From assembly GCA_038324715.1 (NCBI GenBank), contig JBBQIG010000001.1, forward strand, positions 1 to 27,795: 27,795 nucleotides of DNA. The letters are read 5' to 3'. The first letter of the stretch is position 1. Every line of letters starts with the position of its first letter. Source of the stretch: Anaerolineae bacterium (lineage in GTDB: Bacteria; Chloroflexota; Anaerolineae; Caldilineales; Caldilineaceae). The position numbers and the translations under genes are program-made. The notes below the pieces were generated by a model, which worked only from the letters and a program-made list of their open reading frames with translations, made no database searches and was not told the DNA's origin. Shown one piece after another: positions 1,325 to 27,795 of this stretch.

Positions 1325-4135
1325 ATGCGTCGTTCACATTCTCTGTTGCTCTTGCTCTTCTCCATTGTAGTTGGCAGTACTGCGTCTGTAGGGCAATTGC
1401 TTGCCGCACCACGACCTCAAGAAACAGTTGATCTAACCGTAACCCCCATAGGAACCTATGCCACAGGCATCTTTGATGAAGGTGCCAGTGAAATCGTCGC
1501 CTACGATGTTGCCAGCCAACGTCTCTTTTCAGTGAATGCAGCGGCTACCTCAATTGACATTCTTGATTTATCTGACCCTACCACACCTACCTTCATCACC
1601 CAGATTGATGCCACGGCATTGGGAGCCAACGCAAACAGTGTTGCCGTTCATGAAGGCTTAGTAGCGGCTGCTATCGAAGCCGAGGCTGTGGGTGAAGCAG
1701 GGATCGTCGCCTTTTATGACATTGATGGCAATTTGCTCAATTCAGTGGAAGTTGGTTTCCTTCCCGATATGGTGACCTTTTCACCCGATGGGCAAAAAGT
1801 AGTCAGCGCCAACGAAGGCGAACCAAGCGATGATTACACCATTGATCCCGTGGGCAGCATCAGCATCATTGACCTGAGTGATGGCATTGAAAATTTGACC
1901 CAAGATGCCGTGACCACGCTGGACTTTTCAACCTTCAATGACACAGAGCTTCCCGACTCGATCCGCATCTTTGGACCAGGAGCGACAGTTGCCCAGGATG
2001 TGGAACCTGAATATGTTGCCATCTCGCCAGACTCCACTACGGCATGGGTGACGCTGCAAGAAAATAATGCCATTGCGGTCGTTGACTTGGAGGCAGGGGA
2101 AATTTCTGAATTACTTCCCCTTGGCACAAAGAACTTCAATGCCCCTGTCGCCACCCTAGAGACCTATACGTTTGACGAGTTACCGCTGCTAGGTACAACC
2201 GAAGCAGGGCAAGAGATCCTGCTGGGCGGCTTCTCTGGCCTCTTCTTTGAGGGCGTCAACGAAGAGACCGGTGCGTTACAATTCATTACCCACCCCGACC
2301 GCGGCCCCAACCCGGAGCCAATCGACACCGATGGCGATGGCGTCAACGAGCGTCCCTTTGCGCTACCCGATTATCAGGCCCAGTGGGTGCGCTTTGAACT
2401 AGACTCCACCACAGGCGCATTGACCATCACCGAGCAAACGCGGCTCAGTAGAGCGGATGGCACGCCCATCAGTGGTCTGCCTAATCTGGCTGGCGAGGAG
2501 GGCATAGCCTATGCCGATGAATTGCCCATTGACCTATTTGGCACACCGCTTGAAAATGACCCCTATGGAGCCGACCTTGAAGGCATTATCCAGGCGGAAG
2601 ACGGAACCTATTGGCTGGTTGACGAATATCGCCCTGCCATCTATCATTTTGATGCCACCGGCGTTTTGATCGAACGTTATGTGCCAGAAGGCTCGAACGA
2701 GAGCGGCGTGGACGTTGGCGTGGAAGCCTTCCCTGCCATCTATGCCCAGCGCCGTGCCAACCGTGGCTTTGAAGCCGTTGCCTATGAGAATGGCATTCTC
2801 TATGCCTTTATCCAAAGCCCAATTGACAACCCCGACCGCACCAATGATGAGAACTCCAAGGCATCAAACTTTGTGCGTATTCTGGCCTTTGATACCACTA
2901 CCGCCACCCCTGTTGCCGAATATCTCTACGAGTTGGATGGTATGCCCGTGGATAAAATCGGTGACGCCGTCGCCTTGGGTAATGGGCAATTCCTGGTGGT
3001 CGAACGCGATGCTGCCGTTGGCCCCCAAGCGAAAAAATTCATCTACAAGATCGACCTGGAAGGCGCAACCAACCTGCTTGAGCTAGACGAGCTTCCTGCG
3101 GGTCTAGAACGCCAAAATCTGTCTGGCTTGGCACGGCTTGGCATTGCACCCGTACAAAAGAGTCTTTATGTAGACTTAAGCGCCATTGGCTATGTGCAAG
3201 GGGATAAGGTTGAAGGCTTGGCCTTTATTGATGAGAATACCCTTGCCATCCTCAACGACAATGACTTTGCAATTTCGGGTAATTTTGATCCTGAAACTGG
3301 GTTACTGGCAGAAAACGAGAATCCGGTTGAACCCGTGTTGGGCATTATTCGCCTACATCCTAACGGTCTTGATGCCAGTAATGAAGATGGCGCAATCAAT
3401 ATTCAAAATTGGCCTGTAGAAGCCTATTACCTACCCGATGCCATTGCTGCCTATACCGCTGCCGATGGTGAAACCTATTATGTGACTGCTAATGAAGGCG
3501 ATACGCGCGATTATGATGGCTATAGCGAAGTCACCCGCATCGGCGACCTACTGCTCGACTTTGCCACCTATCCCGATGCGCTTACCCTTCAAGCTGAAGG
3601 CGCATTGGGCCGTCTGCTGACCAGCACAAACGTTGGAGATGAAGATGGCGATGGACTGGTAGAGCAACTGTACACTTTGGGCGCTCGCTCCTTCACCATC
3701 TGGCGCGCTGATGGCACCGTTGCCTTTGACAGTGGCAGTGACTTGGAAACGATCACCGCAGAACTTTCCCCCGACAACTTTAACTCAAATGGGGGAGCCG
3801 ATGGCTTTGATGGTCGCAGCGACGACAAGGGACCTGAGCCAGAAGCAGTCACCATTGGCGTCATTGGTGAGCGCACCTACGCCTTCATCGCCTTGGAGCG
3901 CACGGGCGGCGTCGCCGTCTATGAGATCACAGAGCCGACCGCAGCCACCTTTGTCACCTATGCCAACAATCGTGACATCACCCTTCCTGCCGATGATCCC
4001 GCAGCTGGTGACAGTGGCCCAGAGAGTATGGCCTTCGTTCCCGCAAGCGACAGCCCAACTGGGCAAGACTTGCTAATCGTGGGCAATGAGGTGAGCGGTT
4101 CCATCACGATCTACGCCGTCGAAACAGCAGAATAG
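1325..4135 (+). CDS. Secreted alkaline-phosphatase-like protein: choice-of-anchor I domain interrupted by an esterase-like phytase-family domain
   Basis: Signal peptide MRRSHSLLLLLFSIVVGSTA; AAAGGA RBS favours ATG 1325 over 1310. Choice-of-anchor I motifs ANEGEP, EPEY, LQENNA, PDAIA, TANEGD, DGRSDDKGPEPE, LERTGG, GPE and GNEVSG. Inner domain motifs HPDRGPN, DLEGI, DEYRP, NRGFEA and KVEGLA. Confidence 0.8.
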   Translation: MRRSHSLLLLLFSIVVGSTASVGQLLAAPRPQETVDLTVTPIGTYATGIFDEGASEIVAYDVASQRLFSVNAAATSIDILDLSDPTTPTFITQIDATALGANANSVAVHEGLVAAAIEAEAVGEAGIVAFYDIDGNLLNSVEVGFLPDMVTFSPDGQKVVSANEGEPSDDYTIDPVGSISIIDLSDGIENLTQDAVTTLDFSTFNDTELPDSIRIFGPGATVAQDVEPEYVAISPDSTTAWVTLQENNAIAVVDLEAGEISELLPLGTKNFNAPVATLETYTFDELPLLGTTEAGQEILLGGFSGLFFEGVNEETGALQFITHPDRGPNPEPIDTDGDGVNERPFALPDYQAQWVRFELDSTTGALTITEQTRLSRADGTPISGLPNLAGEEGIAYADELPIDLFGTPLENDPYGADLEGIIQAEDGTYWLVDEYRPAIYHFDATGVLIERYVPEGSNESGVDVGVEAFPAIYAQRRANRGFEAVAYENGILYAFIQSPIDNPDRTNDENSKASNFVRILAFDTTTATPVAEYLYELDGMPVDKIGDAVALGNGQFLVVERDAAVGPQAKKFIYKIDLEGATNLLELDELPAGLERQNLSGLARLGIAPVQKSLYVDLSAIGYVQGDKVEGLAFIDENTLAILNDNDFAISGNFDPETGLLAENENPVEPVLGIIRLHPNGLDASNEDGAINIQNWPVEAYYLPDAIAAYTAADGETYYVTANEGDTRDYDGYSEVTRIGDLLLDFATYPDALTLQAEGALGRLLTSTNVGDEDGDGLVEQLYTLGARSFTIWRADGTVAFDSGSDLETITAELSPDNFNSNGGADGFDGRSDDKGPEPEAVTIGVIGERTYAFIALERTGGVAVYEITEPTAATFVTYANNRDITLPADDPAAGDSGPESMAFVPASDSPTGQDLLIVGNEVSGSITIYAVETAE

Positions 4136-4322: not shown

Positions 4323-5048
4323 CTAGATCTTCGCAGACGCAATAGCTTCTGCCTGAAACTTAAACAACTGCTGAATGCCCATCTCCGCCAACAGTAGCAT
4401 TGCATTGAGTGCGGCGCGGCTAAAGGGTTCACCCTCTGCCGTCCCCTGCACCTCAATAAAACGCCCATCGGCAGCCATTGCCACGTTCATATCCACATCC
4501 GCAGCCAAGTCCATATCATAATTCAGATCGAGTGCCGCCTTACCCTTAACAATGCCCACGCTCACCGCAGCCACTGCTTGTGTAAGTGTCCCAACGGGAA
4601 TGGTCCTCTTTTTCTCCAAGCGTAGCAATGCCAATGCCATTGCGACATAGCCGCCGGTGATCGAAGCGGTGCGCGTGCCCCCATCAGCCTGAATAACATC
4701 ACAATCAATGATGATTTGCCGTTCGCCAAGCTTTTCCAAGTCCACGCCCGCGCGCAGACTGCGTGCGATCAAGCGCTTAATCTCCTGCGTCCGTCCTTTG
4801 GGCGTTAAAGTCTCCCGTTGGTTGCGTTGTGCCGTAGAGCGAGGAAGCATCGCATATTCCGCCGTAATCCAGCCGTGGCGATCTTTGCCACTCCTCAGCC
4901 AGCGCGGCAGATTCTCATCTATGGTGGCGTTGCACAACACCTTAGTTTGGCCCATACTGATCAAGACCGAACCTTCGGGATAGATTACATAATCCAGCTC
5001 AAAATTCACGGGGCGCAATTCGTCTAAGGCGCGTGTTTGCTCTGTCAC
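4323..5048 (-). CDS. rph: Ribonuclease PH
   Basis: [53 protein letters not shown] and EVQGTAEG; GTG start with GAGGA RBS. Confidence 0.97.
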
Positions 5049-5216
5049 CAGTTTGTCCTCTCGTTCTTTTAAAAACAGTTCTAGATTTACAGCCTACAAA
5101 TACAGCTGCCTCCATGGGGAGAAAGCCAGTGCAAAGTCCGGTCGCTCTGCCATATAGAAAACAGTCACCTGTTAGGTTCATCTACATTGTGCCCCATGCC
5201 ATCTCCGGAGGACAAC

Positions 5217-5244
5217 AAAAAACCCTTCCAGTACTGGAAGGGTT
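5217..5244 (-). terminator. Intrinsic terminator after the tRNA-Ala genes
   Basis: Perfect palindrome CCCTTCCAGT/ACTGGAAGGG followed by T6 on the minus strand, a few bases past the tRNA 3' end. Confidence 0.85.
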
Positions 5245-5248
5245 GAGG

Positions 5249-5321
<73 letters not shown>

Positions 5322-5357
5322 AAACAAAGGTCTCGACAAATTTTCCTGCCGACCTAT

Positions 5358-5385
5358 ATTCTATTGTTTCTGACCCGCCTGTCAA
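5358..5385 (-). promoter_or_regulatory. Sigma70-type promoter for tRNA-Ala(GGC)
   Basis: TTGACA-16 bp-TAGAAT on the minus strand, about 36 bp upstream of the tRNA. Confidence 0.65.
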
Positions 5386-5458
5386 ATCCAGCTCTAGCAA
5401 ATGGTCTAAAACTTATACCACTCCTCTTGACACTCGCAGGTACATCCTTGGTCAGGAG

Positions 5459-5531
<73 letters not shown>

Positions 5532-5551
5532 GCTTGCGTTGACAAGAAGGC

Positions 5552-5580
5552 AGTATAACAGATGCCCCACCTCTGGTCAA
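5552..5580 (-). promoter_or_regulatory. Sigma70-type promoter with extended -10 for tRNA-Ala(CGC)
   Basis: TTGACC-17 bp-TATACT with TG-n before the -10, 20 bp upstream of the tRNA. Confidence 0.75.
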
Positions 5581-5674
5581 ATCTGGGTGGAAAAAGGGTG
5601 CAAGTAAGGTTGCCTAGTAACCAGCGCCTTCCCTTCTACTTCCACTCCCTCCTGTATGACAACTTCTGATTAGA

Positions 5675-6826
5675 CTAGACTTGATTCGATTGTTGGACTT
5701 CTCCGACGGACAGTTCATCAGCACCTAATTGGTCTACACGCCGAACGGATCTACCCCGCGACGCAATCGCCTGGGCGATACGTTCGGCATCCCTGCTGAC
5801 GCCGTGAACCATCGTCGACGACAATGCGTGGAGGAAGTGCAGACCGACAAAATAGAGTCCAGGTTCGTTTGTGACCACGCCGCTCTGGTGATTTGGTTCT
5901 CCATCCTCAAGCACAGGAAGGTCAATCCACGAGAAGCCGGGGTGGAATCCCGTGCACCAAATAATATTCGCCACATCAAGAACGCTACCATCCTCCAGCA
6001 CGGGCAGCCCATCGCGCACGCCCACGGTCTTGGGGACTCGTTTGATCCCGGCAGCCGTGATGTCGCCAGGCTTGGAGCGTATCAAAGGCCCGCCTTGAGA
6101 AATGACCTTCGGGCGCACCTTTCGACCGATCGGGGTGTTCACGGTCATCACGCGATGGAAGAGACCGCGCAACACGAGACGAACGAGGAGCAATCGTGCC
6201 GCAACGCCGTCAATGCGGAACGGGATGTGACCTGTATCCCGCCCTGACACCCAGGTTGGATGCCCGCGCACGACATCAAGGGCAATCTCAACGCCCGAGT
6301 TGCCAGCACCCACGACGAGGACGCCCCCCTCCCGCAGTTGAGAGGGATTCCGATATTCGCTGGAATGTAACTGAACGATACTCGGATCAAGTTCCTGAGC
6401 AAAGGAAGGCACGCGCGGATGTTGATAGTTCGCCATGGCTACCACCACTTGTTTTGCCTCAAAGCAGTCATCACCTGTCGCCACCACAAAGCTATCCCCT
6501 CGTCTAGAAAGCCTCTCCACCTTGACGCCATTAAGAACTGGCAGTTTAAAGTGCGTTGCGTAGGCCTCAAGATAATCTCCCATCTCATCCTTCGTCGGGA
6601 ACAAGTGAGGTGGCGCGGGGAAGGGCATCCCTACAAGCCCATTGTAGCGGGCAGGGGTAAAGAGACGCAGTGAATCCCACCGCTTTCGCCAGCTGTCACC
6701 AATGCGCTCATTGGCGTCTAGGATAACGAAATCGCATCCCTGCTGTTGCAGGTAATAGCCGGTGGATAGCCCAGCTTGGCCACCACCAATAATGATAGTG
6801 TCATAGGTACGGGTTGGGTTCTTCAT
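5675..6826 (-). CDS. Flavin-containing monooxygenase-like NAD(P)/FAD-dependent oxidoreductase (CzcO/TrkA-like)
   Basis: IGGGQAG (FAD), WRKRWDSLRLFTP, QLHSSEYRNP, VGAGNSG (NADPH), IIWCTGF and PGLYFVG. Confidence 0.88.
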   Translation of the reverse strand: MKNPTRTYDTIIIGGGQAGLSTGYYLQQQGCDFVILDANERIGDSWRKRWDSLRLFTPARYNGLVGMPFPAPPHLFPTKDEMGDYLEAYATHFKLPVLNGVKVERLSRRGDSFVVATGDDCFEAKQVVVAMANYQHPRVPSFAQELDPSIVQLHSSEYRNPSQLREGGVLVVGAGNSGVEIALDVVRGHPTWVSGRDTGHIPFRIDGVAARLLLVRLVLRGLFHRVMTVNTPIGRKVRPKVISQGGPLIRSKPGDITAAGIKRVPKTVGVRDGLPVLEDGSVLDVANIIWCTGFHPGFSWIDLPVLEDGEPNHQSGVVTNEPGLYFVGLHFLHALSSTMVHGVSRDAERIAQAIASRGRSVRRVDQLGADELSVGEVQQSNQV

Positions 6827-21093: not shown

Positions 21094-21516
21094 TTACTCA
21101 TCATCCCGCCGCACACGACCCCGCAACGACTTTATCTTCCCCCGTTGCGTTTTGCGCTCAACGCGCTTGCGCTTCGATGCTGCCGTCGGTCGAGTTTTAT
21201 ACCGATTCTTGGGACGAATTGCCGCTTGGCGAATAAGGTCAATCAACTGTACCACTGCCGCTTCACGGTTGCGTGTCTGGGATCGGGTCGCCCGCGCATC
21301 AAGAATCAGTACCCCCTCATCCGTCATTCGCTGCCCTGCCAGCTTGATCAGCCGCTGCCGCGCATCTTCAGGCAATGCCGCCTTTGCCACATCATAACGC
21401 AATTGCACCGCGCTAGAGACCTTGTTGACATTTTGGCCCCCAGGCCCCGACGCGCGCACAAACTCAAAGTCTAGATCGTTTTCGTCTATCTCAATCCCAG
21501 GTGCTACGTGAATCAT
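21094..21516 (-). CDS. arfB: Alternative ribosome rescue peptidyl-tRNA hydrolase ArfB (YaeJ)
   Basis: FVRASGPGGQNVNKVSSAVQLR (GGQ), RSQTRNREAA and basic tail KTRPTAASKRKRVERK. Confidence 0.95.
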   Translation of the reverse strand: MIHVAPGIEIDENDLDFEFVRASGPGGQNVNKVSSAVQLRYDVAKAALPEDARQRLIKLAGQRMTDEGVLILDARATRSQTRNREAAVVQLIDLIRQAAIRPKNRYKTRPTAASKRKRVERKTQRGKIKSLRGRVRRDDE

Positions 21517-23309
21517 GCCGCTACCCTTTCTACTTGCATCACCAAGTGGGCTAGCACGCGCAGCAAATCAGGCAGTGCATCCATGCGATACTCACCCATC
21601 AAGGAAATCTGAATCCAATTCTTCTCCACCAAGTAGCGACTTTGATAATTGACCAGAAACCCATGTTCCGCCAAGCCATCCCCCACTGCCACAGAAGAGA
21701 CTCCTGACGGCAGCACAACAGTTGTCACCGCGGGCGATGCCACCGCCTCAGGTGCGCACACACAGAGGCCAGCCTTTCTCAGTGCATCACGCAAGGTTGC
21801 CCCATCGCGCGCAATCAGTTCATACGAGCGCGACCCCAAAGTTTCCAACGCAACCGTCAATGCATAGACTATATTGGTGTTAAGGGTAAAAGGAACCCCG
21901 TTGGCCTGCCGGTAAGTACCTAAATCGAGATAGGCAGGAAGTTGATTCGAGGCAGGTTGCAGTGGCTCGTTGTAAAAGACCATCGCCAATCCCGCAACAG
22001 CCCCCAACGCCTTACCGCTAGTTGAAGTCGCTAAATACAGATCACGCAAATCAAGTTCCACCACGCCCAATGAGCTAATACAATCAACACACAGCTTCAC
22101 GCCGCGGCCTTTGCACAAAGCCGCCAGTCCAGACAGGTCATTGAGTACCCCGGTGGAGGTCTCGCTATGCACACACCAGATCCAGGTAATTGCAGGATCG
22201 GCGGCAAGGTGGGCATCAATCTCTGCCAAAGAAAAACTTTCACCCCAAGGCATCTCCACCCGATCAAAGCATAGCTGCCAACGTTGTGCCTTATCCACCA
22301 ATCGCCGCCCAAACTCACCATTGATCAAGACCAATCCGCGACCCGCCAGCAAAGACAACTGCCCTGCCACTGCCTCGTTCCCCAACGTGCCAGAACCAAA
22401 CAGAAACTCCACATAGCGAGCGCCCACCCTAGTACACAATTGTGACTGCAACGCAGCTACATCGTCGAGAAATTTTCTACTACGGTGCGAAATCATTGGT
22501 TGGCTCATACTTGCCATCACCGCCGCAGGAATATTGACAGGTCCCGGCAAATAGTTGAGGGGCGGATCATAAACAGGCAATTCCACGTTTCCTCTTGGCT
22601 CAATCGCATTCGTCACATTTGCAACTTGCGTAGCAACAGCATTACTTTCTCCATTGCTTTCGCGGTTACTTTCAACCCTACTCGCACCATGCAATGATTT
22701 CACCCAAGGAGTCTGACGCATTGCTGCACTGAGGGTCAAGTACATCGGCTGAAAGTGCGCATCCCCTTTGCCCACCAGCGGTCCAAAGGCGGCAAAACCC
22801 AGATGACGATAAAAGCGCTCTTGGCGCGTCGTGCCAGAGATCAACGCCAGATCATGCCCATGCGCCACAGCATATTGTGCAATCATCTCCATCAGCCCGC
22901 GCATAACCTTACCATTCCGGTGTGCAGGTTGCACATAAAGCAAGCGTATCTCACACAATGACCGGTGAGGTGGCAGATAGCTCTCCAAGTCAGGCAATTT
23001 CTTGTCCAATGAGAAAGGGCGATTGGAGCGCAATGCCAACATCGCCACAACACGCTCCCTTATAGCATTAACATCGCTGTAGGGGGGTGCACTATTGAAG
23101 TTCATGTGCGCAGTTATTTGGTATTCGCTATCCACAGACGAGTCGTCGGAAAGTGCAATGGCATAGCAATTTTCAGCATGAAATTGATCAACCAGCCGCC
23201 GCTCTGGGTTGGCTGCATGTTGGAGAATCTCCTCCACAAAAGCGGTATAATTTAGCCGGTGGATCTGCTCGAATTCAGAATCTTCACTAGCAAACTTGAA
23301 GTGGTACAC
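21513..23309 (-). CDS. Two-domain protein: GNAT-fold N-acyl-amide synthase (FeeM/AHL-synthase-like) fused to a class V PLP aminotransferase
   Basis: aa 1-195: EQIHRLNY..FVEE, RPFSLDKKL, LCEIRLL, ISGTTRQ..FY..LGF. aa ~250-598: LPGPV, SHRS, GSGTLGNE, NGEFG, HSETSTG, VDCISSLG (D409) and SGKALG (K433). GTG start. Confidence 0.88.
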   Translation of the reverse strand: MYHFKFASEDSEFEQIHRLNYTAFVEEILQHAANPERRLVDQFHAENCYAIALSDDSSVDSEYQITAHMNFNSAPPYSDVNAIRERVVAMLALRSNRPFSLDKKLPDLESYLPPHRSLCEIRLLYVQPAHRNGKVMRGLMEMIAQYAVAHGHDLALISGTTRQERFYRHLGFAAFGPLVGKGDAHFQPMYLTLSAAMRQTPWVKSLHGASRVESNRESNGESNAVATQVANVTNAIEPRGNVELPVYDPPLNYLPGPVNIPAAVMASMSQPMISHRSRKFLDDVAALQSQLCTRVGARYVEFLFGSGTLGNEAVAGQLSLLAGRGLVLINGEFGRRLVDKAQRWQLCFDRVEMPWGESFSLAEIDAHLAADPAITWIWCVHSETSTGVLNDLSGLAALCKGRGVKLCVDCISSLGVVELDLRDLYLATSTSGKALGAVAGLAMVFYNEPLQPASNQLPAYLDLGTYRQANGVPFTLNTNIVYALTVALETLGSRSYELIARDGATLRDALRKAGLCVCAPEAVASPAVTTVVLPSGVSSVAVGDGLAEHGFLVNYQSRYLVEKNWIQISLMGEYRMDALPDLLRVLAHLVMQVERVAA

Positions 23310-23411
23310 AGGGACTTCCCCTTCCCAACAAAACCTACAGAACTCCTGGCGGATTTCTATAGCAGCTCTTTTAATAGATATTCCTACAGGCTCTCAGATT
23401 ATGTTCTCAGA

Positions 23412-24002
23412 TTATGTAGAGTGCGAAGAAAGAGGCTGCGGCATGAAACTCGCACGATGTGCAAAAAGCAGCAAAGCTGCCAGCACAACCAGACCGCCCG
23501 CCATAAGATCATCCACGCCCAAAAACCAAGCCACGAGCGGTGTGAGTATCACCGCAATCAATCCAGAACGCGTAAATCTACGCGTTAACGCCAACAAAAC
23601 CAACGCAATGGCTGCAACAATCAGCCCAAGCGTCACATCGAGCATTAAAACGCCACCAAATGCAGTAGATGCGCCCTTGCCACCTCGCCAACCCAATTGG
23701 ATGGGCCATAAATGACCCATGACCACAGCTAGTAGCACAGCAATCAAGCCAACGGAAGACAAACCGGCCCAATTCGCCAGTTGAACTGCCAACGCACCTT
23801 TGATGGCATCAACCAAAAAGGTCGCCACAAATCCACCTTTGCCCAGAATGCGCCCCACATTGCGTGCGCCTGCTGTGCCGCTTCCCAACTGCCGAATATC
23901 TTGGCCTGTGCGCCATCGGACTAGGTAATAGGCAGTAGAGAAACATCCTAATAAGTAGCTTGCTAGAATTACAAGTACGTTCATGATTAGAAATTGATTC
24001 AT
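23412..24002 (-). CDS. PlsY-like acyl-phosphate acyltransferase paralog with divergent motifs
   Basis: YLLG, DIRQLGSGTAGARNVGR, DAIKG, GHLWP and RGGKGAST; motif 3 reads HRAS rather than HxxN. Start at ATG 24002 or 23984. Confidence 0.85.
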   Translation of the reverse strand: MNQFLIMNVLVILASYLLGCFSTAYYLVRWRTGQDIRQLGSGTAGARNVGRILGKGGFVATFLVDAIKGALAVQLANWAGLSSVGLIAVLLAVVMGHLWPIQLGWRGGKGASTAFGGVLMLDVTLGLIVAAIALVLLALTRRFTRSGLIAVILTPLVAWFLGVDDLMAGGLVVLAALLLFAHRASFMPQPLSSHST

Positions 24003-24388
24003 AACAAGTTGACCGGTAGGGTTAACCAATGGACGAGAAACCCAGAGAATGCCCAAAGATAAAGTGAGTAAATCAGTTTGTTTTCTAGCAAACTGTTACA
24101 GGAACCAAGCAGCATAAACGGAAGCAGAGGTACTACTTGTCCACCGTAAGCCTATCACAGACAGCCCTCTGCCTCAAGCGGCAACTTGCCGTCCCCTTGT
24201 CGTCCTTAGCGTTATCTAATGCGCTTTCTAAAGCATCGTCTGATCCACCCATGCCACAACTTGATTGCTCCCCAAAATCTGAGAGAACTATCTCGCAGCA
24301 AAACTTCATAGCAAACTCTGGCTTTGATCTGCCCATTTACCCGCGCCACTCAAGTAAAATTTAAGCAAGCGGTCGATCTCCCATTTTA

Positions 24389-25421: not shown

Positions 25422-26858
25422 ATGCCCTACCAAATGTACATCAACGGCCAATGGCGCGATGGCGCTGCTGGCAAGACAGTCGATATTAAAAATCCTGCCA
25501 CGGGCGCAACCGTGGCGCAGCCCGTCTATGGTGAAGTCTCCGACGCCATCGATGCAATGGACGCCGCCGCCACCGCTTTCCCCGGCTGGAAAGCCCAAAC
25601 TGCCTATGTGCGTGGCAATCATCTAGACAAAGCAGCAGCGCTCATCCGTGAACGCGCCAAAGAAATTTCGCGCGTGCTTACCGAAGAAAACGGCAAGACT
25701 TTTGCCGAGTCAATGGCAGAGACCATCGGCTGTGCCATGTGGTTCGAATGGTTTGCCGAAGAAGGCAAGCGTGTCTATGGGCGCATGATCCCAAGTCACT
25801 TTGCAAACAAGCGCCACTGGGTCATCCACCAACCCGTGGGCGTCGTCGTCGCCGTCAACCCCTGGAATTTCCCCATCAACTTAATGTGTCGCAAATTGGC
25901 AGGAGCACTCTCCGCAGGCTGCACCATTGTCAGCCGCCCTGCCACCAAAACGCCACTCAGTTCGATGTTGCTTTATGAGTGTTTGCATGATGCAGACTTT
26001 CCTCCTGGTGTCGTTAATTTGGTCACAGGCAGCGCAGGTAAGGTCACAAACGCTATGCTGGAGCACCCCGCCTGTCGCAAACTCACCTTTACGGGCAGCA
26101 CTGAGGTCGGTAAAGAACTGATGCAGCAAGCGGGTGCACGCATCACCAAGCTTTCACTAGAGCTAGGCGGTCACGCCCCTCTGCTCGTCTTCCCCGATGT
26201 CAAGTTGGACGAAGCTGTAGAACAGAGCGTGGTGGCTAAATTCCGCAACGCAGGGCAAAGCTGCATCGCCCCCACCCGATTCTATGTCCATGAGGATATC
26301 TTTGACACCTTTGCCGAAAAAGTCACGGCGCGTGTCGCCGCCATGAAAGTGGGCAACGGCTTGACCGACGGCATGGAGATGGGGCCACTCTTTGACCAGA
26401 ACCAACTCGATGGTGTGGCTGGCTTTGTGGACGACGCCGTTGCCAAGGGAGCCAAAGTGCTCACTGGTGGCAAGCGACTTGCTGGCGGGGAGTATGACCA
26501 AGGCTATTTCTACGCACCGACGGTCTTAACCAATATCAGTCCTGATATGCGCCTCACTTGTGAAGAGGTCTTTGGCCCGATCCTGCCATTGATTCCCTTT
26601 AACGATGAGGCAGAGGTCATTGCCCAGGCAAACAACACAGAGTATGGTTTGGCAGCCTATGTGCTGGTACGTGACATCTCCACAGCCCTGCGTGTCAGCG
26701 AAGCGTTGGAATATGGCATTGTCGGTCTCAACGACGCCGTACCCACAGTGCCCCAAGCGCCCTTTGGCGGTTGGAAGGAGAGTGGGCTGAATCGGGAAGG
26801 CGGCTATGAGGGTATCCACTCCTACATGGAAGTCAAATACATCAGCGTGGGGGTCTAA
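25422..26858 (+). CDS. gabD: NAD(P)-dependent succinate-semialdehyde dehydrogenase-like aldehyde dehydrogenase
   Basis: PWNFP, FTGSTEVG, LELGGHAP, FRNAGQSCIAP (catalytic Cys), EEVFGP and PFGGWKESG. Substrate specificity is not provable from sequence. Confidence 0.85.
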   Translation: MPYQMYINGQWRDGAAGKTVDIKNPATGATVAQPVYGEVSDAIDAMDAAATAFPGWKAQTAYVRGNHLDKAAALIRERAKEISRVLTEENGKTFAESMAETIGCAMWFEWFAEEGKRVYGRMIPSHFANKRHWVIHQPVGVVVAVNPWNFPINLMCRKLAGALSAGCTIVSRPATKTPLSSMLLYECLHDADFPPGVVNLVTGSAGKVTNAMLEHPACRKLTFTGSTEVGKELMQQAGARITKLSLELGGHAPLLVFPDVKLDEAVEQSVVAKFRNAGQSCIAPTRFYVHEDIFDTFAEKVTARVAAMKVGNGLTDGMEMGPLFDQNQLDGVAGFVDDAVAKGAKVLTGGKRLAGGEYDQGYFYAPTVLTNISPDMRLTCEEVFGPILPLIPFNDEAEVIAQANNTEYGLAAYVLVRDISTALRVSEALEYGIVGLNDAVPTVPQAPFGGWKESGLNREGGYEGIHSYMEVKYISVGV

Positions 26859-26863
26859 TCCAT

Positions 26864-27795
26864 ATGCACACAGGCTCAACGCTGACTCATCTGGAGTGTG
26901 GGCGTTGTGGGGAAACCTATCCCGCTGACAAATTGATGAACCTTTGTCCGGCGTGTAGTAAACCCCTCCTCGCACGCTATGACCTCGCCCTGGCAGCACT
27001 CACAATGACGCCAGAAGCACTGCGTCAACGTCCACAAACGCTCTGGCGCTATGCCGAAGTGTTACCCGTCCAAGAAGAGTGGGCTGTGCTCAACTTGGGC
27101 GAAGGCTTTACGCCGCTGATCAAGGCCGAACGTCTTGGTGACTCAATCGGTTGCCCCCAGACATACATCAAGGATGAAGGACTCAACCCCACGGGCAGTT
27201 TTAAAGCGCGTGGGTTGAGTGTTGCCGTCAGCCGTGCCTATGAGTTGGGAGCCAAAGAGGTCGCCATACCAAGTGCTGGGAATGCAGCAGGGGCTATGAG
27301 TGCCTATGCCGCCGCCGCGGGTCTACCCGCGCATGTCTTCATGCCCGCCGATGTCCCCATGCTCTTCCGCACCGAATGTGAACAATTAGGTGCCAGCGTA
27401 AGCCTGGTCAACGGCTTGATCACAGATTGCGGTGTCAAGGTGCGCGAAGGAGTTGCCGAGCATGGCTGGTTCGATGTCAGCACCCTGCGTGAGCCTTATC
27501 GTATTGAAGGCAAGAAGACCATGGGCTATGAACTGGTTGAGCAGATGGAGTGGACGCTGCCGGATGTGATCATCTATCCCACAGGCGGCGGCACGGGTCT
27601 GGTCGGCATGTGGAAAGCCTTTGCCGAAATGGAATCAATGGGGCTGATCGGCTCCCAACGCCCGCGCATGGTCACGGTGCAAAGCGATGGCTGTGCGCCA
27701 ATGGTACGTGCCTTTCTCCAAGAAGAGGAGTTTGCCGAACCCTGGCAAGGAGCAAAGACCGTTGCCGATGGATTGCGCGTTCCTGCCGCAGTCGG
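26864..27795 (+). CDS. Threonine-synthase-family PLP enzyme with N-terminal Zn ribbon (partial; runs off the window and is absent from the ORF track)
   Basis: Hand translation: ECGRCG..LCPACSKPL, LWRYAEVLP, LGEGFTPL, KDEGLNPTGSFKARG (PLP Lys), PSAGNA, REPYRIEGKKTMG and YPTGGGTG. Starts 5 bp after the gabD-like stop. Confidence 0.9.
   Translation, partial: MHTGSTLTHLECGRCGETYPADKLMNLCPACSKPLLARYDLALAALTMTPEALRQRPQTLWRYAEVLPVQEEWAVLNLGEGFTPLIKAERLGDSIGCPQTYIKDEGLNPTGSFKARGLSVAVSRAYELGAKEVAIPSAGNAAGAMSAYAAAAGLPAHVFMPADVPMLFRTECEQLGASVSLVNGLITDCGVKVREGVAEHGWFDVSTLREPYRIEGKKTMGYELVEQMEWTLPDVIIYPTGGGTGLVGMWKAFAEMESMGLIGSQRPRMVTVQSDGCAPMVRAFLQEEEFAEPWQGAKTVADGLRVPAAV

Follow-up and report, generated by a model that had tools for sequence, protein, structure and literature searches.

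Two adjacent genes of an Anaerolineae bacterium probably form a biosynthetic unit for a hitherto undescribed membrane lipid, with serinol phosphate in place of glycerol phosphate as its backbone. They lie in a 27,795-nucleotide stretch of DNA that was analysed as a whole (hereafter the window), and they encode a paralog of the acyltransferase PlsY and a fusion of an N-acyl synthase with a class V PLP aminotransferase. The N-acyl serinol synthase family is already known; its recurrent pairing with a PlsY clade of its own appears to be undescribed.

Locus architecture

Both genes are read from the minus strand, PlsY first (23412–24002; 196 aa from an ATG at 24002, within an open reading frame that spans 23412–24056 and offers an alternative TTG start at 24056) and then the fusion (21513–23309; 598 aa from a GTG start), with exactly 102 bp from the stop of the former to the start of the latter. 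These coordinates agree with the original prediction, which had placed a PlsY-like gene 102 bp upstream of a co-oriented fusion gene. A purine-rich, Shine-Dalgarno-like run, GGGAAGGGGAAG, is located 6 nt ahead of the fusion's GTG, and a sequence scan of the intergenic spacer (23310–23411, minus strand, as read from the sequence) revealed no terminator-like site between PlsY and the fusion; promoter and terminator consensus scans returned site numbers not above chance expectation.

A third gene, arfB (21094–21516, minus strand; ribosome-rescue peptidyl-tRNA hydrolase, NCBIfam ArfB 177.6 bits), overlaps the stop of the fusion with its own start by 4 nt. This arrangement of the pair with arfB occurs in close Caldilineaceae-like relatives only and is not kept in the other 80 loci. 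ArfB was considered as a member of the module and rejected on that distribution; it is probably a co-transcribed passenger that stands outside the module.

The fusion protein and its family

The fusion combines an N-acyl synthase domain of the FeeM/AHL-synthase-like GNAT fold (aa 1–200; 22710–23309, minus strand) with a class V PLP aminotransferase domain (aa 249–598; 21513–22565, minus strand, stop codon included), an architecture that had been read from the sequence beforehand and that the Pfam matches to FeeM (PF21926) and Aminotran_5 (PF00266) bear out. In the N-terminal domain the FeeM match covers residues 16–177 (E 6e-10, 39.6 bits against a cut-off of 27), and PF13444, which is recorded for most homologs, scores 20.0 bits in the window protein, slightly below its cut-off of 22.4. 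The domain is modelled with a pLDDT of 87.9, and its top structural neighbours are the AHL synthases BjaI, MesI, TofI and LasI together with FeeM (2G0B). E120, which sits in the motif LCEIRLL, is invariant along with R122 and R131 (each 80/80 in homologs from 12 or more phyla), and E120 is the candidate acidic catalytic residue of the domain. Two segments stand apart from the conserved core: a lineage-specific insertion of about 33 aa within the N-acyl synthase domain (aa 56–88; 23046–23144, minus strand), which is missing from the other 25 sequences of our alignment A1 and has a pLDDT below 50 at residues 59–80, and the interdomain linker (aa 201–248; 22566–22709, minus strand), which is weakly conserved and variable in length in the same alignment, with a pLDDT below 50 at residues 202–222.

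Over its full length, both domains included, the window fusion shares 42% identity (E 3e-152) with EHL05550.1, a fusion of class V and FeeM type from Desulfitobacterium hafniense DP7. N-acyl serinol synthases have been traced to D. hafniense DP7, Bacillus sp. 2_A_57_CT2 (MIBiG BGC0001683) and Gemella haemolysans (Cohen et al. 2017, as related in PMC9605164, PMC12795557 and PMC13012048), and a passage of PMC9605164 that cites Cohen 2017 attributes the formation of N-palmitoyl serinol in E. coli to the hm-NAS gene of DP7. EHL05550.1 would be the product of that cloned gene, judging from the strain name only. Protein searches surfaced no Gemella or Bacillus sp. 2_A_57_CT2 proteins among the homologs, and Gemella proteins were not found in the Atlas either; since no Gemella sequence surfaced, the link to a characterised enzyme goes through D. 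hafniense DP7. By sequence, the fusion is a member of the N-acyl-serinol synthase family that includes the DP7 protein, and the check proposed with the original prediction, against characterised N-acyl serinol synthases (as these are described in the secondary accounts above) and FeeM profiles, thus came out in its favor on both counts, the full-length identity to the DP7 protein and the FeeM score above cut-off.

The likeness to the D. hafniense DP7 protein extends to the order of the domains, with the FeeM/PF13444-type N-acyl synthase preceding the class V aminotransferase, and to all catalytic and motif residues, which it has in common with the window fusion. The window protein differs in its 33-aa insertion and in its host, an environmental Chloroflexota bacterium. 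A further difference concerns genetic context: the published work, as the papers cited above recount it, expressed the synthase gene alone and saw N-acyl serinol as a host-signalling end product, whereas both in the window and in D. hafniense, where the reading frame of an intact, linked-type PlsY runs into the start of the fusion gene, the synthase is coupled to a dedicated PlsY paralog. Such coupling would imply a further acylated, phosphorylated product. In D. dehalogenans the linked PlsY gene is split by a frameshift.

Distribution and linkage to PlsY

Genomes of at least 591 species, spread over 12 or more phyla, encode the fusion. A co-oriented PlsY gene stands immediately upstream of it in 61 of the 77 informative loci, again across 12 or more phyla, so that the linkage anticipated from the single locus proves to be conserved. 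At most other loci the spacing is tighter, with the reading frames overlapping or separated by a few bases, and in one natural protein, P0152, a lone ORF of 756 aa unites all three domains, PlsY, FeeM and aminotransferase. Since the pair recurs across phyla amid unrelated flanking genes, the pairing is more than chance. All-against-all clustering of the flanking ORFs from 82 loci yielded no other conserved neighbour family, be it a transporter, a phosphatase or a CDP-transferase; only the fusion, PlsY and shadow ORFs recur. PlsY is absent from the remaining 16 of the 77 loci, which indicates that the fusion can act alone, and the fusion itself is patchy within Chloroflexota, as none of 300 sampled genomes of that phylum carries it. 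Carriers available in culture include D. hafniense, Desulfosporosinus lacus DSM 15449, Desulforhopalus singaporensis DSM 12130, Limisphaera ngatamarikiensis, Litorilinea aerophila and Alkalihalobacillus sp. AL-G.

The linked PlsY clade

PlsY is the acyl-phosphate:glycerol-3-phosphate (G3P) acyltransferase, with the Aquifex aeolicus enzyme (5XJ5; PMC5700162) as reference structure. The window protein scores 127.4 bits on the family model G3P_acyltransf (PF02660; cut-off 24.1) but does not reach equivalog level in NCBIfam (NF001254, 127.5 vs. 199; TIGR00023, 102.6 vs. 137.2). A second PlsY is encoded in the same genome on another contig (C142), which makes the window PlsY a paralog, and an additional, higher-scoring housekeeping PlsY is present in all eight carrier genomes tested (8/8). 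Linked PlsYs occupy one side of a branch with support 100/98, apart from 12 unlinked PlsYs, and the window protein falls inside the linked group; the paralog status claimed at the outset therefore holds, both by the second gene on C142 and by the separate clade. The seven genomes with a stand-alone fusion have 0–1 PlsY, of the housekeeping type. Conversely, 300 Chloroflexota genomes devoid of the fusion yielded no linked-type PlsY; the best score there against a linked-PlsY profile was 156 bits, on a scale on which free PlsYs reach 155 bits or less and held-out linked PlsYs 185–258.

In the Aquifex enzyme the phosphate clamp is formed by S35, R45, K104 and N180, His92 serves the acyl-phosphate, and S142 and H177 contact the glycerol 2-OH, with Thr41 as a further position of note (PMC5700162). 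At the functional positions the window PlsY has S35, T37, R41, R45, H92, K104, G142, H177 and S180; the Ser, Arg, Lys and His are thus retained, yet Ser stands at clamp position N180, as in 1/63 of the linked clade. Across that clade (n = 63) the core is well kept (S35 63/63, R45 59/63, K104 56/63 with Arg in the other seven, N180 54/63, H92 61/63). The acceptor side differs: S142 is replaced by Gly in 48/63 and T41 by Arg in 49/63, and N37 gives way to Ser or Thr, while among free PlsYs S142 (11/11) and T/S41 (12/12) are invariant. H177 is kept in the window protein, whose G142 and R41 depart from ordinary PlsY; family-wide, R41 and G142 are found in 3.0% and 5.2% of PlsYs, respectively. Because Ala (33% of ordinary PlsYs) or Gly also occurs at position 142 in ordinary PlsYs and Bacillota linked PlsYs retain T41, these acceptor-pocket changes, read from sequence, are suggestive and not diagnostic. 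Relative to the PlsX/PlsY/PlsC pathway, then, the paralog shares PF02660 membership, the seven-helix family signature, the phosphate clamp (save for position 180 of the window copy) and the acyl-phosphate His92, with PlsX present in the genome, and it differs in its separate clade, its sub-equivalog scores (window copy), its substitutions at 142, 41 (Thr kept in Bacillota) and 37, and its position beside the fusion in addition to a housekeeping PlsY.

These observations also bear on whether the two genes work toward separate products, with the fusion producing N-acyl serinol, phosphorylated or not, for signalling or as a secondary lipid and the linked PlsY acting as an ordinary G3P acyltransferase that balances acyl flux or raises phospholipid synthesis when the operon is on. 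The paralog does keep all the residues essential in Aquifex PlsY (S35, R45, K104, H92, H177), the Ala or Gly at position 142 of ordinary PlsYs weakens the pocket argument, N-acyl serinol is reported to form in E. coli from the fusion alone, and the loci devoid of PlsY point the same way. However, carrier genomes already possess a housekeeping PlsY, the paralog is a distinct clade not found away from the fusion in the genomes searched, and overlap between the two genes is the rule, with one instance of a single polypeptide that unites them, so we regard separate products as unlikely and favor a shared one.

The aminotransferase domain and its amine

In the C-terminal domain of the fusion, where the PF00266 match covers residues 275–452, the PLP-binding Lys and Asp are K433 and D409, both of which align with their counterparts in the alanine-glyoxylate aminotransferase (AGT) 1vjo. 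Together with E120 these are the residues named in the original prediction, and all three are found as stated, each in 80/80 homologs from 12 or more phyla. K433 also aligns with the Lys of E. coli SerC, and a conserved S274-H275-R276 motif, whose His-Arg pair is invariant, aligns with SerC S40-H41-R42; the probability of the E. coli SerC alignment is low (28%), and we rely on it at the motif level only. The fusion shares the SHR motif with SerC but has an invariant Gln, Q567, at the position of the α-carboxylate-binding Arg of AGT-like enzymes, and the SerC equivalog NF003764 is not reached (28 vs. a cut-off of 253). The top NCBIfam match is PhnW-AepZ (TIGR03301, 151 bits vs. a cut-off of 361), with TIGR02326 at 105 vs. 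401 and likewise below equivalog level, and in the PDB the domain finds its neighbours, by sequence as well as by fold, among AGT and PhnW enzymes, the best structural neighbour being the 2-aminoethylphosphonate (AEP):pyruvate transaminase 7e7g.

[quoted passage not shown] The reaction is the one proposed here, and the SHR motif is common to the SerC/PSAT family and the fusion. RtxA and Cj1437 are likened to the fusion domain by this proposed reaction and not by sequence, its closest relatives being AGT and PhnW, and in the fusion Gln takes the place of the canonical carboxylate Arg.

The PhnW-like matches, both by family model and by structure, and the identity of only 42% to the DP7 enzyme leave room for a different amine in this lineage, such as 2-aminoethylphosphonate, phosphoethanolamine, phosphoserine or a 1-amino-glycerol-3-phosphate made from glyceraldehyde-3-phosphate, in which case the lipid would not be serinol-based. 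The PhnW scores are far under the equivalog cut-offs, though, and the active-site residues are invariant family-wide, the Desulfitobacterium branch included; moreover, AEP, phosphoethanolamine and phosphoserine have no hydroxyl for PlsY to acylate. A search for PEP mutase in six carrier genomes (G000–G005) gave no match above cut-off in any and no match at all in four, so that in these carriers the phosphonate pathway that would indicate another amine is absent. An N-acyl-aminoethylphosphonate product, which those matches had prompted us to consider, was rejected because PEP mutase does not rise above cut-off and AEP offers PlsY no hydroxyl. A different amine appears to us even less probable than separate products, and serinol remains the preferred reading.

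Discussion

The OlsB/OlsA pathway of ornithine-lipid synthesis illustrates how an N-acyl synthase of the PF13444 kind gives an amide-linked lyso-lipid to which a second acyltransferase adds an ester-linked chain, activities that are sometimes fused in the bifunctional OlsF. That second enzyme, a member of the PlsC family, places its acyl chain on the 3-hydroxy group of the fatty acid attached first. By analogy the module described here may follow the same logic of N-acylation and subsequent ester formation, with the differences that it has a PlsY in place of the PlsC-type enzyme, that the acceptor hydroxyl is presumed to lie on the backbone, and that the amine would be made in situ by the fused aminotransferase.

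We propose that the class V aminotransferase domain would convert DHAP to serinol phosphate, that the fused FeeM-like domain would transfer a fatty acyl group, probably from acyl-ACP, to its 2-amino group, and that the PlsY paralog would esterify the free primary hydroxyl with acyl-phosphate supplied by PlsX. The resulting 1-O-acyl-2-N-acyl-serinol 3-phosphate could then enter head-group pathways or be dephosphorylated. We put the chances that the two genes are one biosynthetic unit for such an amide-linked phosphatidic acid analogue, by these steps, a little above even; DHAP as the substrate, the sources of the two acyl chains, the order in which they are attached and N,O-diacyl-serinol-phosphate as the product are all our inference. 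The pathway interpretation of the original prediction is partly supported, and its descriptions of the GNAT domain as replacing PlsC and of the product as ceramide-phosphate-like may serve as analogies only. The literature searched contained no paper on the coupling of PlsY with the fusion and no lipid of the proposed structure.

Further features speak against the pathway. PlsY enzymes normally use a soluble acceptor (PMC5700162), and an N-acylated, lipidic one would require a second hydrophobic groove. The aminotransferase domain has AEP transaminases and AGT as its closest named families, and not a known DHAP transaminase. The same end product could in principle be reached in reverse order, with the paralog first O-acylating soluble serinol phosphate, as would suit PlsY's usual acceptor and demand the smallest change to its pocket, and the FeeM-like domain then N-acylating the lyso intermediate in a PlsC-like role, but we give this very little credence, as the joining of aminotransferase and N-acyl synthase in one protein suggests that the amine passes straight from the one domain to the other, the fusion by itself is reported to yield N-acyl serinol in E. 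coli, and an O-acyl ester adjacent to a free amine tends, as a matter of general chemistry, to undergo O-to-N acyl migration.

If the proposed route is correct, a widely shared gene pair yields an analogue of phosphatidic acid that is amide-bonded at C2, and hence a sphingolipid-like, hydrolysis-resistant backbone. Glycerolipid-based lipidomics pipelines would mis-assign such a serinol lipid, since its mass falls about 0.98 Da short of that of the corresponding glycerolipid. PlsY, which has been put forward as an antibiotic target and is regarded as strictly specific for G3P, would acquire a natural subfamily that acylates another acceptor. The N-acyl serinols of the human microbiome would likewise stem from a membrane-lipid pathway, as intermediates or as degradation products, and would not be dedicated signals. 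In its broadest form, which we offer tentatively and with chances somewhat short of even, the proposal is that hundreds of species in no fewer than 12 phyla, human-associated Firmicutes included, use the module to make a whole class of bacterial membrane phospholipids in which serinol phosphate, and not glycerol phosphate, bears one chain through an amide and the other through an ester bond, and that the "GPCR-ligand" N-acyl serinols obtained by expression of the synthase only may represent a truncated or dephosphorylated intermediate of this pathway.

Architecture of the PlsY-fusion gene pair

The fusion gene (21513-23309, minus strand) encodes a 598-aa protein from a GTG start preceded by a purine-rich, ribosome-binding-like run and lies 102 bp downstream of a PlsY family gene (23412-24002, minus strand; PF02660, 127 bits) whose reading frame extends upstream as far as a TTG at 24056. 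Re-reading of the sequence bore out the coordinates, the 102-bp spacing and the residues E120, D409 and K433 named in the original prediction, and Pfam profiles match the architecture proposed there: a FeeM N-acyl amino acid synthase domain (residues 16-177, E 6e-10) followed by a class V aminotransferase domain (residues 275-452). Among NCBIfam models the aminotransferase half is closest to PhnW-AepZ, BhcA and pyridoxamine-pyruvate transaminases, all far under equivalog cut-offs, and the PlsY protein scores under the PlsY equivalog cut-offs.

The AlphaFold model of the whole fusion (mean pLDDT 83) consists of two domains separated by a disordered linker, with the aminotransferase half superposing on AEP transaminases, PH1308 and alanine-glyoxylate aminotransferases (TM ~0.8 relative to the targets). 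Modelled alone (pLDDT 88), the N-domain finds its best structural neighbors in the acyl-homoserine-lactone synthases BjaI, MesI, TofI and LasI and in FeeM (2G0B), neighbors that place its predicted structure with the N-acyl synthases among GNAT-fold proteins. This domain also carries a lineage-specific, Ser/Asp-rich 33-aa insertion (window 23046-23144, minus strand), absent from 25 aligned homologs, within which residues 59-80 are predicted to be disordered.

The fusion stop codon shares a 4-nt overlap with the ribosome-rescue factor gene arfB (21094-21516, minus strand), an arrangement that otherwise occurs only in two Caldilineaceae-like relatives; co-transcription of arfB with the lipid operon is apparently an odd, lineage-specific feature. 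Divergent and upstream of PlsY, genes for a GNAT_acetyltran protein (PF12746; 24539-25303), an aldehyde dehydrogenase (25422-26858) and a PALP-family enzyme (26864-27793) lie on the plus strand. The trio also sits next to the pair in a relative with 68% identity but is missing at distant loci, and therefore probably reflects local synteny only.

Conserved coupling and a dedicated PlsY paralog

Protein searches return thousands of full-length homologs of the fusion, and scanning GTDB with a single genome per species confirmed at least 591 loci, the best 80 of which fall in Verrucomicrobiota, Planctomycetota, Acidobacteriota, Chloroflexota, Thermodesulfobacteriota, Bacillota, Kiritimatiellota, Gemmatimonadota, Methylomirabilota, Nitrospirota, Pseudomonadota and others. 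In Chloroflexota, the phylum of the window, the module is rare and patchy, with the fusion in none of 300 sampled genomes. The predicted conservation of the neighborhood across genomes is upheld: among the matches listed, 77 loci extend far enough upstream to be informative, and in 61 of them a PlsY ORF in the same orientation comes immediately before the fusion, mostly overlapping it or a few bases away. Clustering of all flanking ORFs at the loci among these matches revealed no further recurring gene family, so that the conserved unit is exactly PlsY plus the fusion. The remaining loci (16/77) are spread over at least six positions in the tree of the fusion, nested among linked loci, a distribution that points to repeated loss or separation of PlsY. 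At one locus from a human-gut Clostridiaceae MAG (L084:4974-6611), the N-acyl synthase (4974-5543) and aminotransferase (5547-6611) are separate ORFs in a shared frame with one stop codon between them, downstream of a linked PlsY (4373-4972). The split may be genuine (a natural unfused form), or it may mark a read-through site or a mistake in the assembly.

That the upstream gene is a paralog and not the sole plsY of its genome is confirmed by a second PlsY on another contig of the window's own genome. All eight carrier genomes examined encode, besides the linked PlsY, at least one other scoring higher on the Pfam model (150-183 bits vs. 116-135 for linked PlsYs), and seven genomes with a stand-alone fusion have zero or one PlsY, all of the high-scoring kind. 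A maximum-likelihood tree splits 63 linked from 12 unlinked PlsYs by a branch with support 100/98, and a linked-PlsY profile scores held-out linked members at 185-258 bits vs. at most 155 for unlinked ones. In the 300 sampled fusion-less Chloroflexota genomes the top PlsY match to this profile reached 156 bits, and none of them therefore showed a PlsY of the linked type. By these sequence measures, the linked PlsY is a dedicated paralog. Small Dehalococcoidia-type genomes (the Dehalococcoidia G004 and G005, as well as G235 and others) hold 4-8 PlsY family genes each, among them two highly divergent ones (L096, L097) in which Glu replaces the clamp residue R45.

We assigned acceptor-pocket residues by alignment to Aquifex aeolicus PlsY (5XJ5), with roles taken from its structures and mutagenesis (PMC5700162). 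Linked PlsYs retain the phosphate clamp (S35 in 63/63, R45 in 59/63, K104 or Arg in 63/63, N180 in 54/63), the acyl-phosphate residue His92 (61/63) and H177 (63/63). Position 142, where Ser is one of two side chains binding the glycerol 2-OH (PMC5700162), is Gly in 48/63 linked vs. Ser in 11/11 unlinked PlsYs; position 41 is Arg in 49/63 vs. Thr or Ser in 12/12; and N37 is mostly replaced by Ser. These residues match minority states in a survey of 7,288 PlsYs (R41 3.0%, S37 6.0%, G142 5.2%; PMC5700162). The R41/G142 signature recurs in protein cluster P0152 (L105:382-2652; 254 bits on the linked profile), where PlsY, FeeM-like and class V aminotransferase domains share one 756-aa ORF. The pocket changes fit a phosphorylated acceptor with three carbons that differs at C2; they are not diagnostic, since Ala142 is common in ordinary PlsYs, Bacillota members keep T41 and the window protein has Ser180.

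Serinol phosphate as the likely amine

The fusion residues S274-H275-R276, R336, D409 and K433 are invariant in all carriers compared, as is Q567, which occupies the site of the substrate α-carboxylate-binding Arg of AGT-like enzymes, including a stand-alone paralog in the window's genome. In a low-probability profile match that holds at motif level only, the SHR motif falls on S40-H41-R42 of E. coli SerC, residues that bind the phosphoserine phosphate. Conversion of DHAP to serinol phosphate is physiological for RtxA (PMC3222319) and slow for human PSAT1 (PMC9283133). Serinol phosphate carries an amine and a phosphate as well as a primary hydroxyl that is free, and it is the simplest substrate explaining all three domains and the reported product. 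AEP, phosphoethanolamine or phosphoserine would leave nothing for PlsY to acylate, and a phosphonate amine is further unlikely given that none of six carrier genomes has a PEP mutase above cut-off, four lacking any match. In Desulforhopalus singaporensis, a PEP-mutase/isocitrate-lyase superfamily gene (G002:C61:14314-15117; 145 bits vs. a PEP mutase cut-off of 320) lies ~4 kb from the pair on the same contig and is not conserved at other loci.

We propose that DHAP would be transaminated to serinol phosphate, N-acylated by the fused FeeM-like domain and O-acylated by the PlsY paralog with acyl-phosphate as donor, yielding 1-O-acyl-2-N-acyl-serinol-3-phosphate; PlsX is encoded in the window's genome. 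The reverse order of the two acylations is possible, but N-acylation is placed first because transamination and N-acylation reside in one polypeptide, which by itself makes N-acyl serinol. In paralog-less genomes the pathway presumably ends at N-acyl serinol(-P). The fusion adds a new member to an already known family; our full-text literature searches found no paper joining PlsY with serinol and none on serinol-backbone bacterial phospholipids, and as far as we found neither the dedicated PlsY clade nor the implied lipid has been described.

Coupling in a species with a studied N-acyl serinol synthase

As recounted in a passage of PMC9605164 citing Cohen et al. 2017, hm-NAS genes (N-acyl synthase genes) of Desulfitobacterium hafniense DP7 and Bacillus sp. 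2_A_57_CT2 yield N-palmitoyl serinol when expressed in E. coli; the Bacillus strain is also the source of MIBiG BGC0001683, named as an N-acyl serinol cluster in PMC12795557. Cluster look-up places EHL05550.1 ("aminotransferase, class V [D. hafniense DP7]") in the fusion family, and this full-length relative, which shares 42% identity with the window protein over both domains (E 3e-152), supports the proposed kinship with characterized synthases. From the strain name, we infer that EHL05550.1 is the gene cloned from DP7.

At the Desulfitobacterium loci L110 and L114 (1558-3300, 8750-9630) lipid genes surround the pair: upstream, DegV/FakB, which binds fatty acids for acyl-phosphate formation, and a CMAS-like methyltransferase; downstream, MscL and a DAG-kinase-like gene. 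In Desulfitobacterium dehalogenans (CP003348.1, L110:3420-4001) the upstream PlsY is broken into two ORFs (3420-3701, 3717-4001) that lie in different frames, with no gene called there, and its D. hafniense counterpart (L114:3393-4001) is intact; the split gene is a possible natural knock-out for comparative lipidomics. D. hafniense genomes carry an intact linked-type PlsY (G142; 221 bits on the linked profile) ending at the same base at which the fusion starts, and the PlsY coupling is therefore also present where the synthase was studied. With the synthase expressed alone, as in PMC13012048, a PlsY-dependent product would stay hidden.
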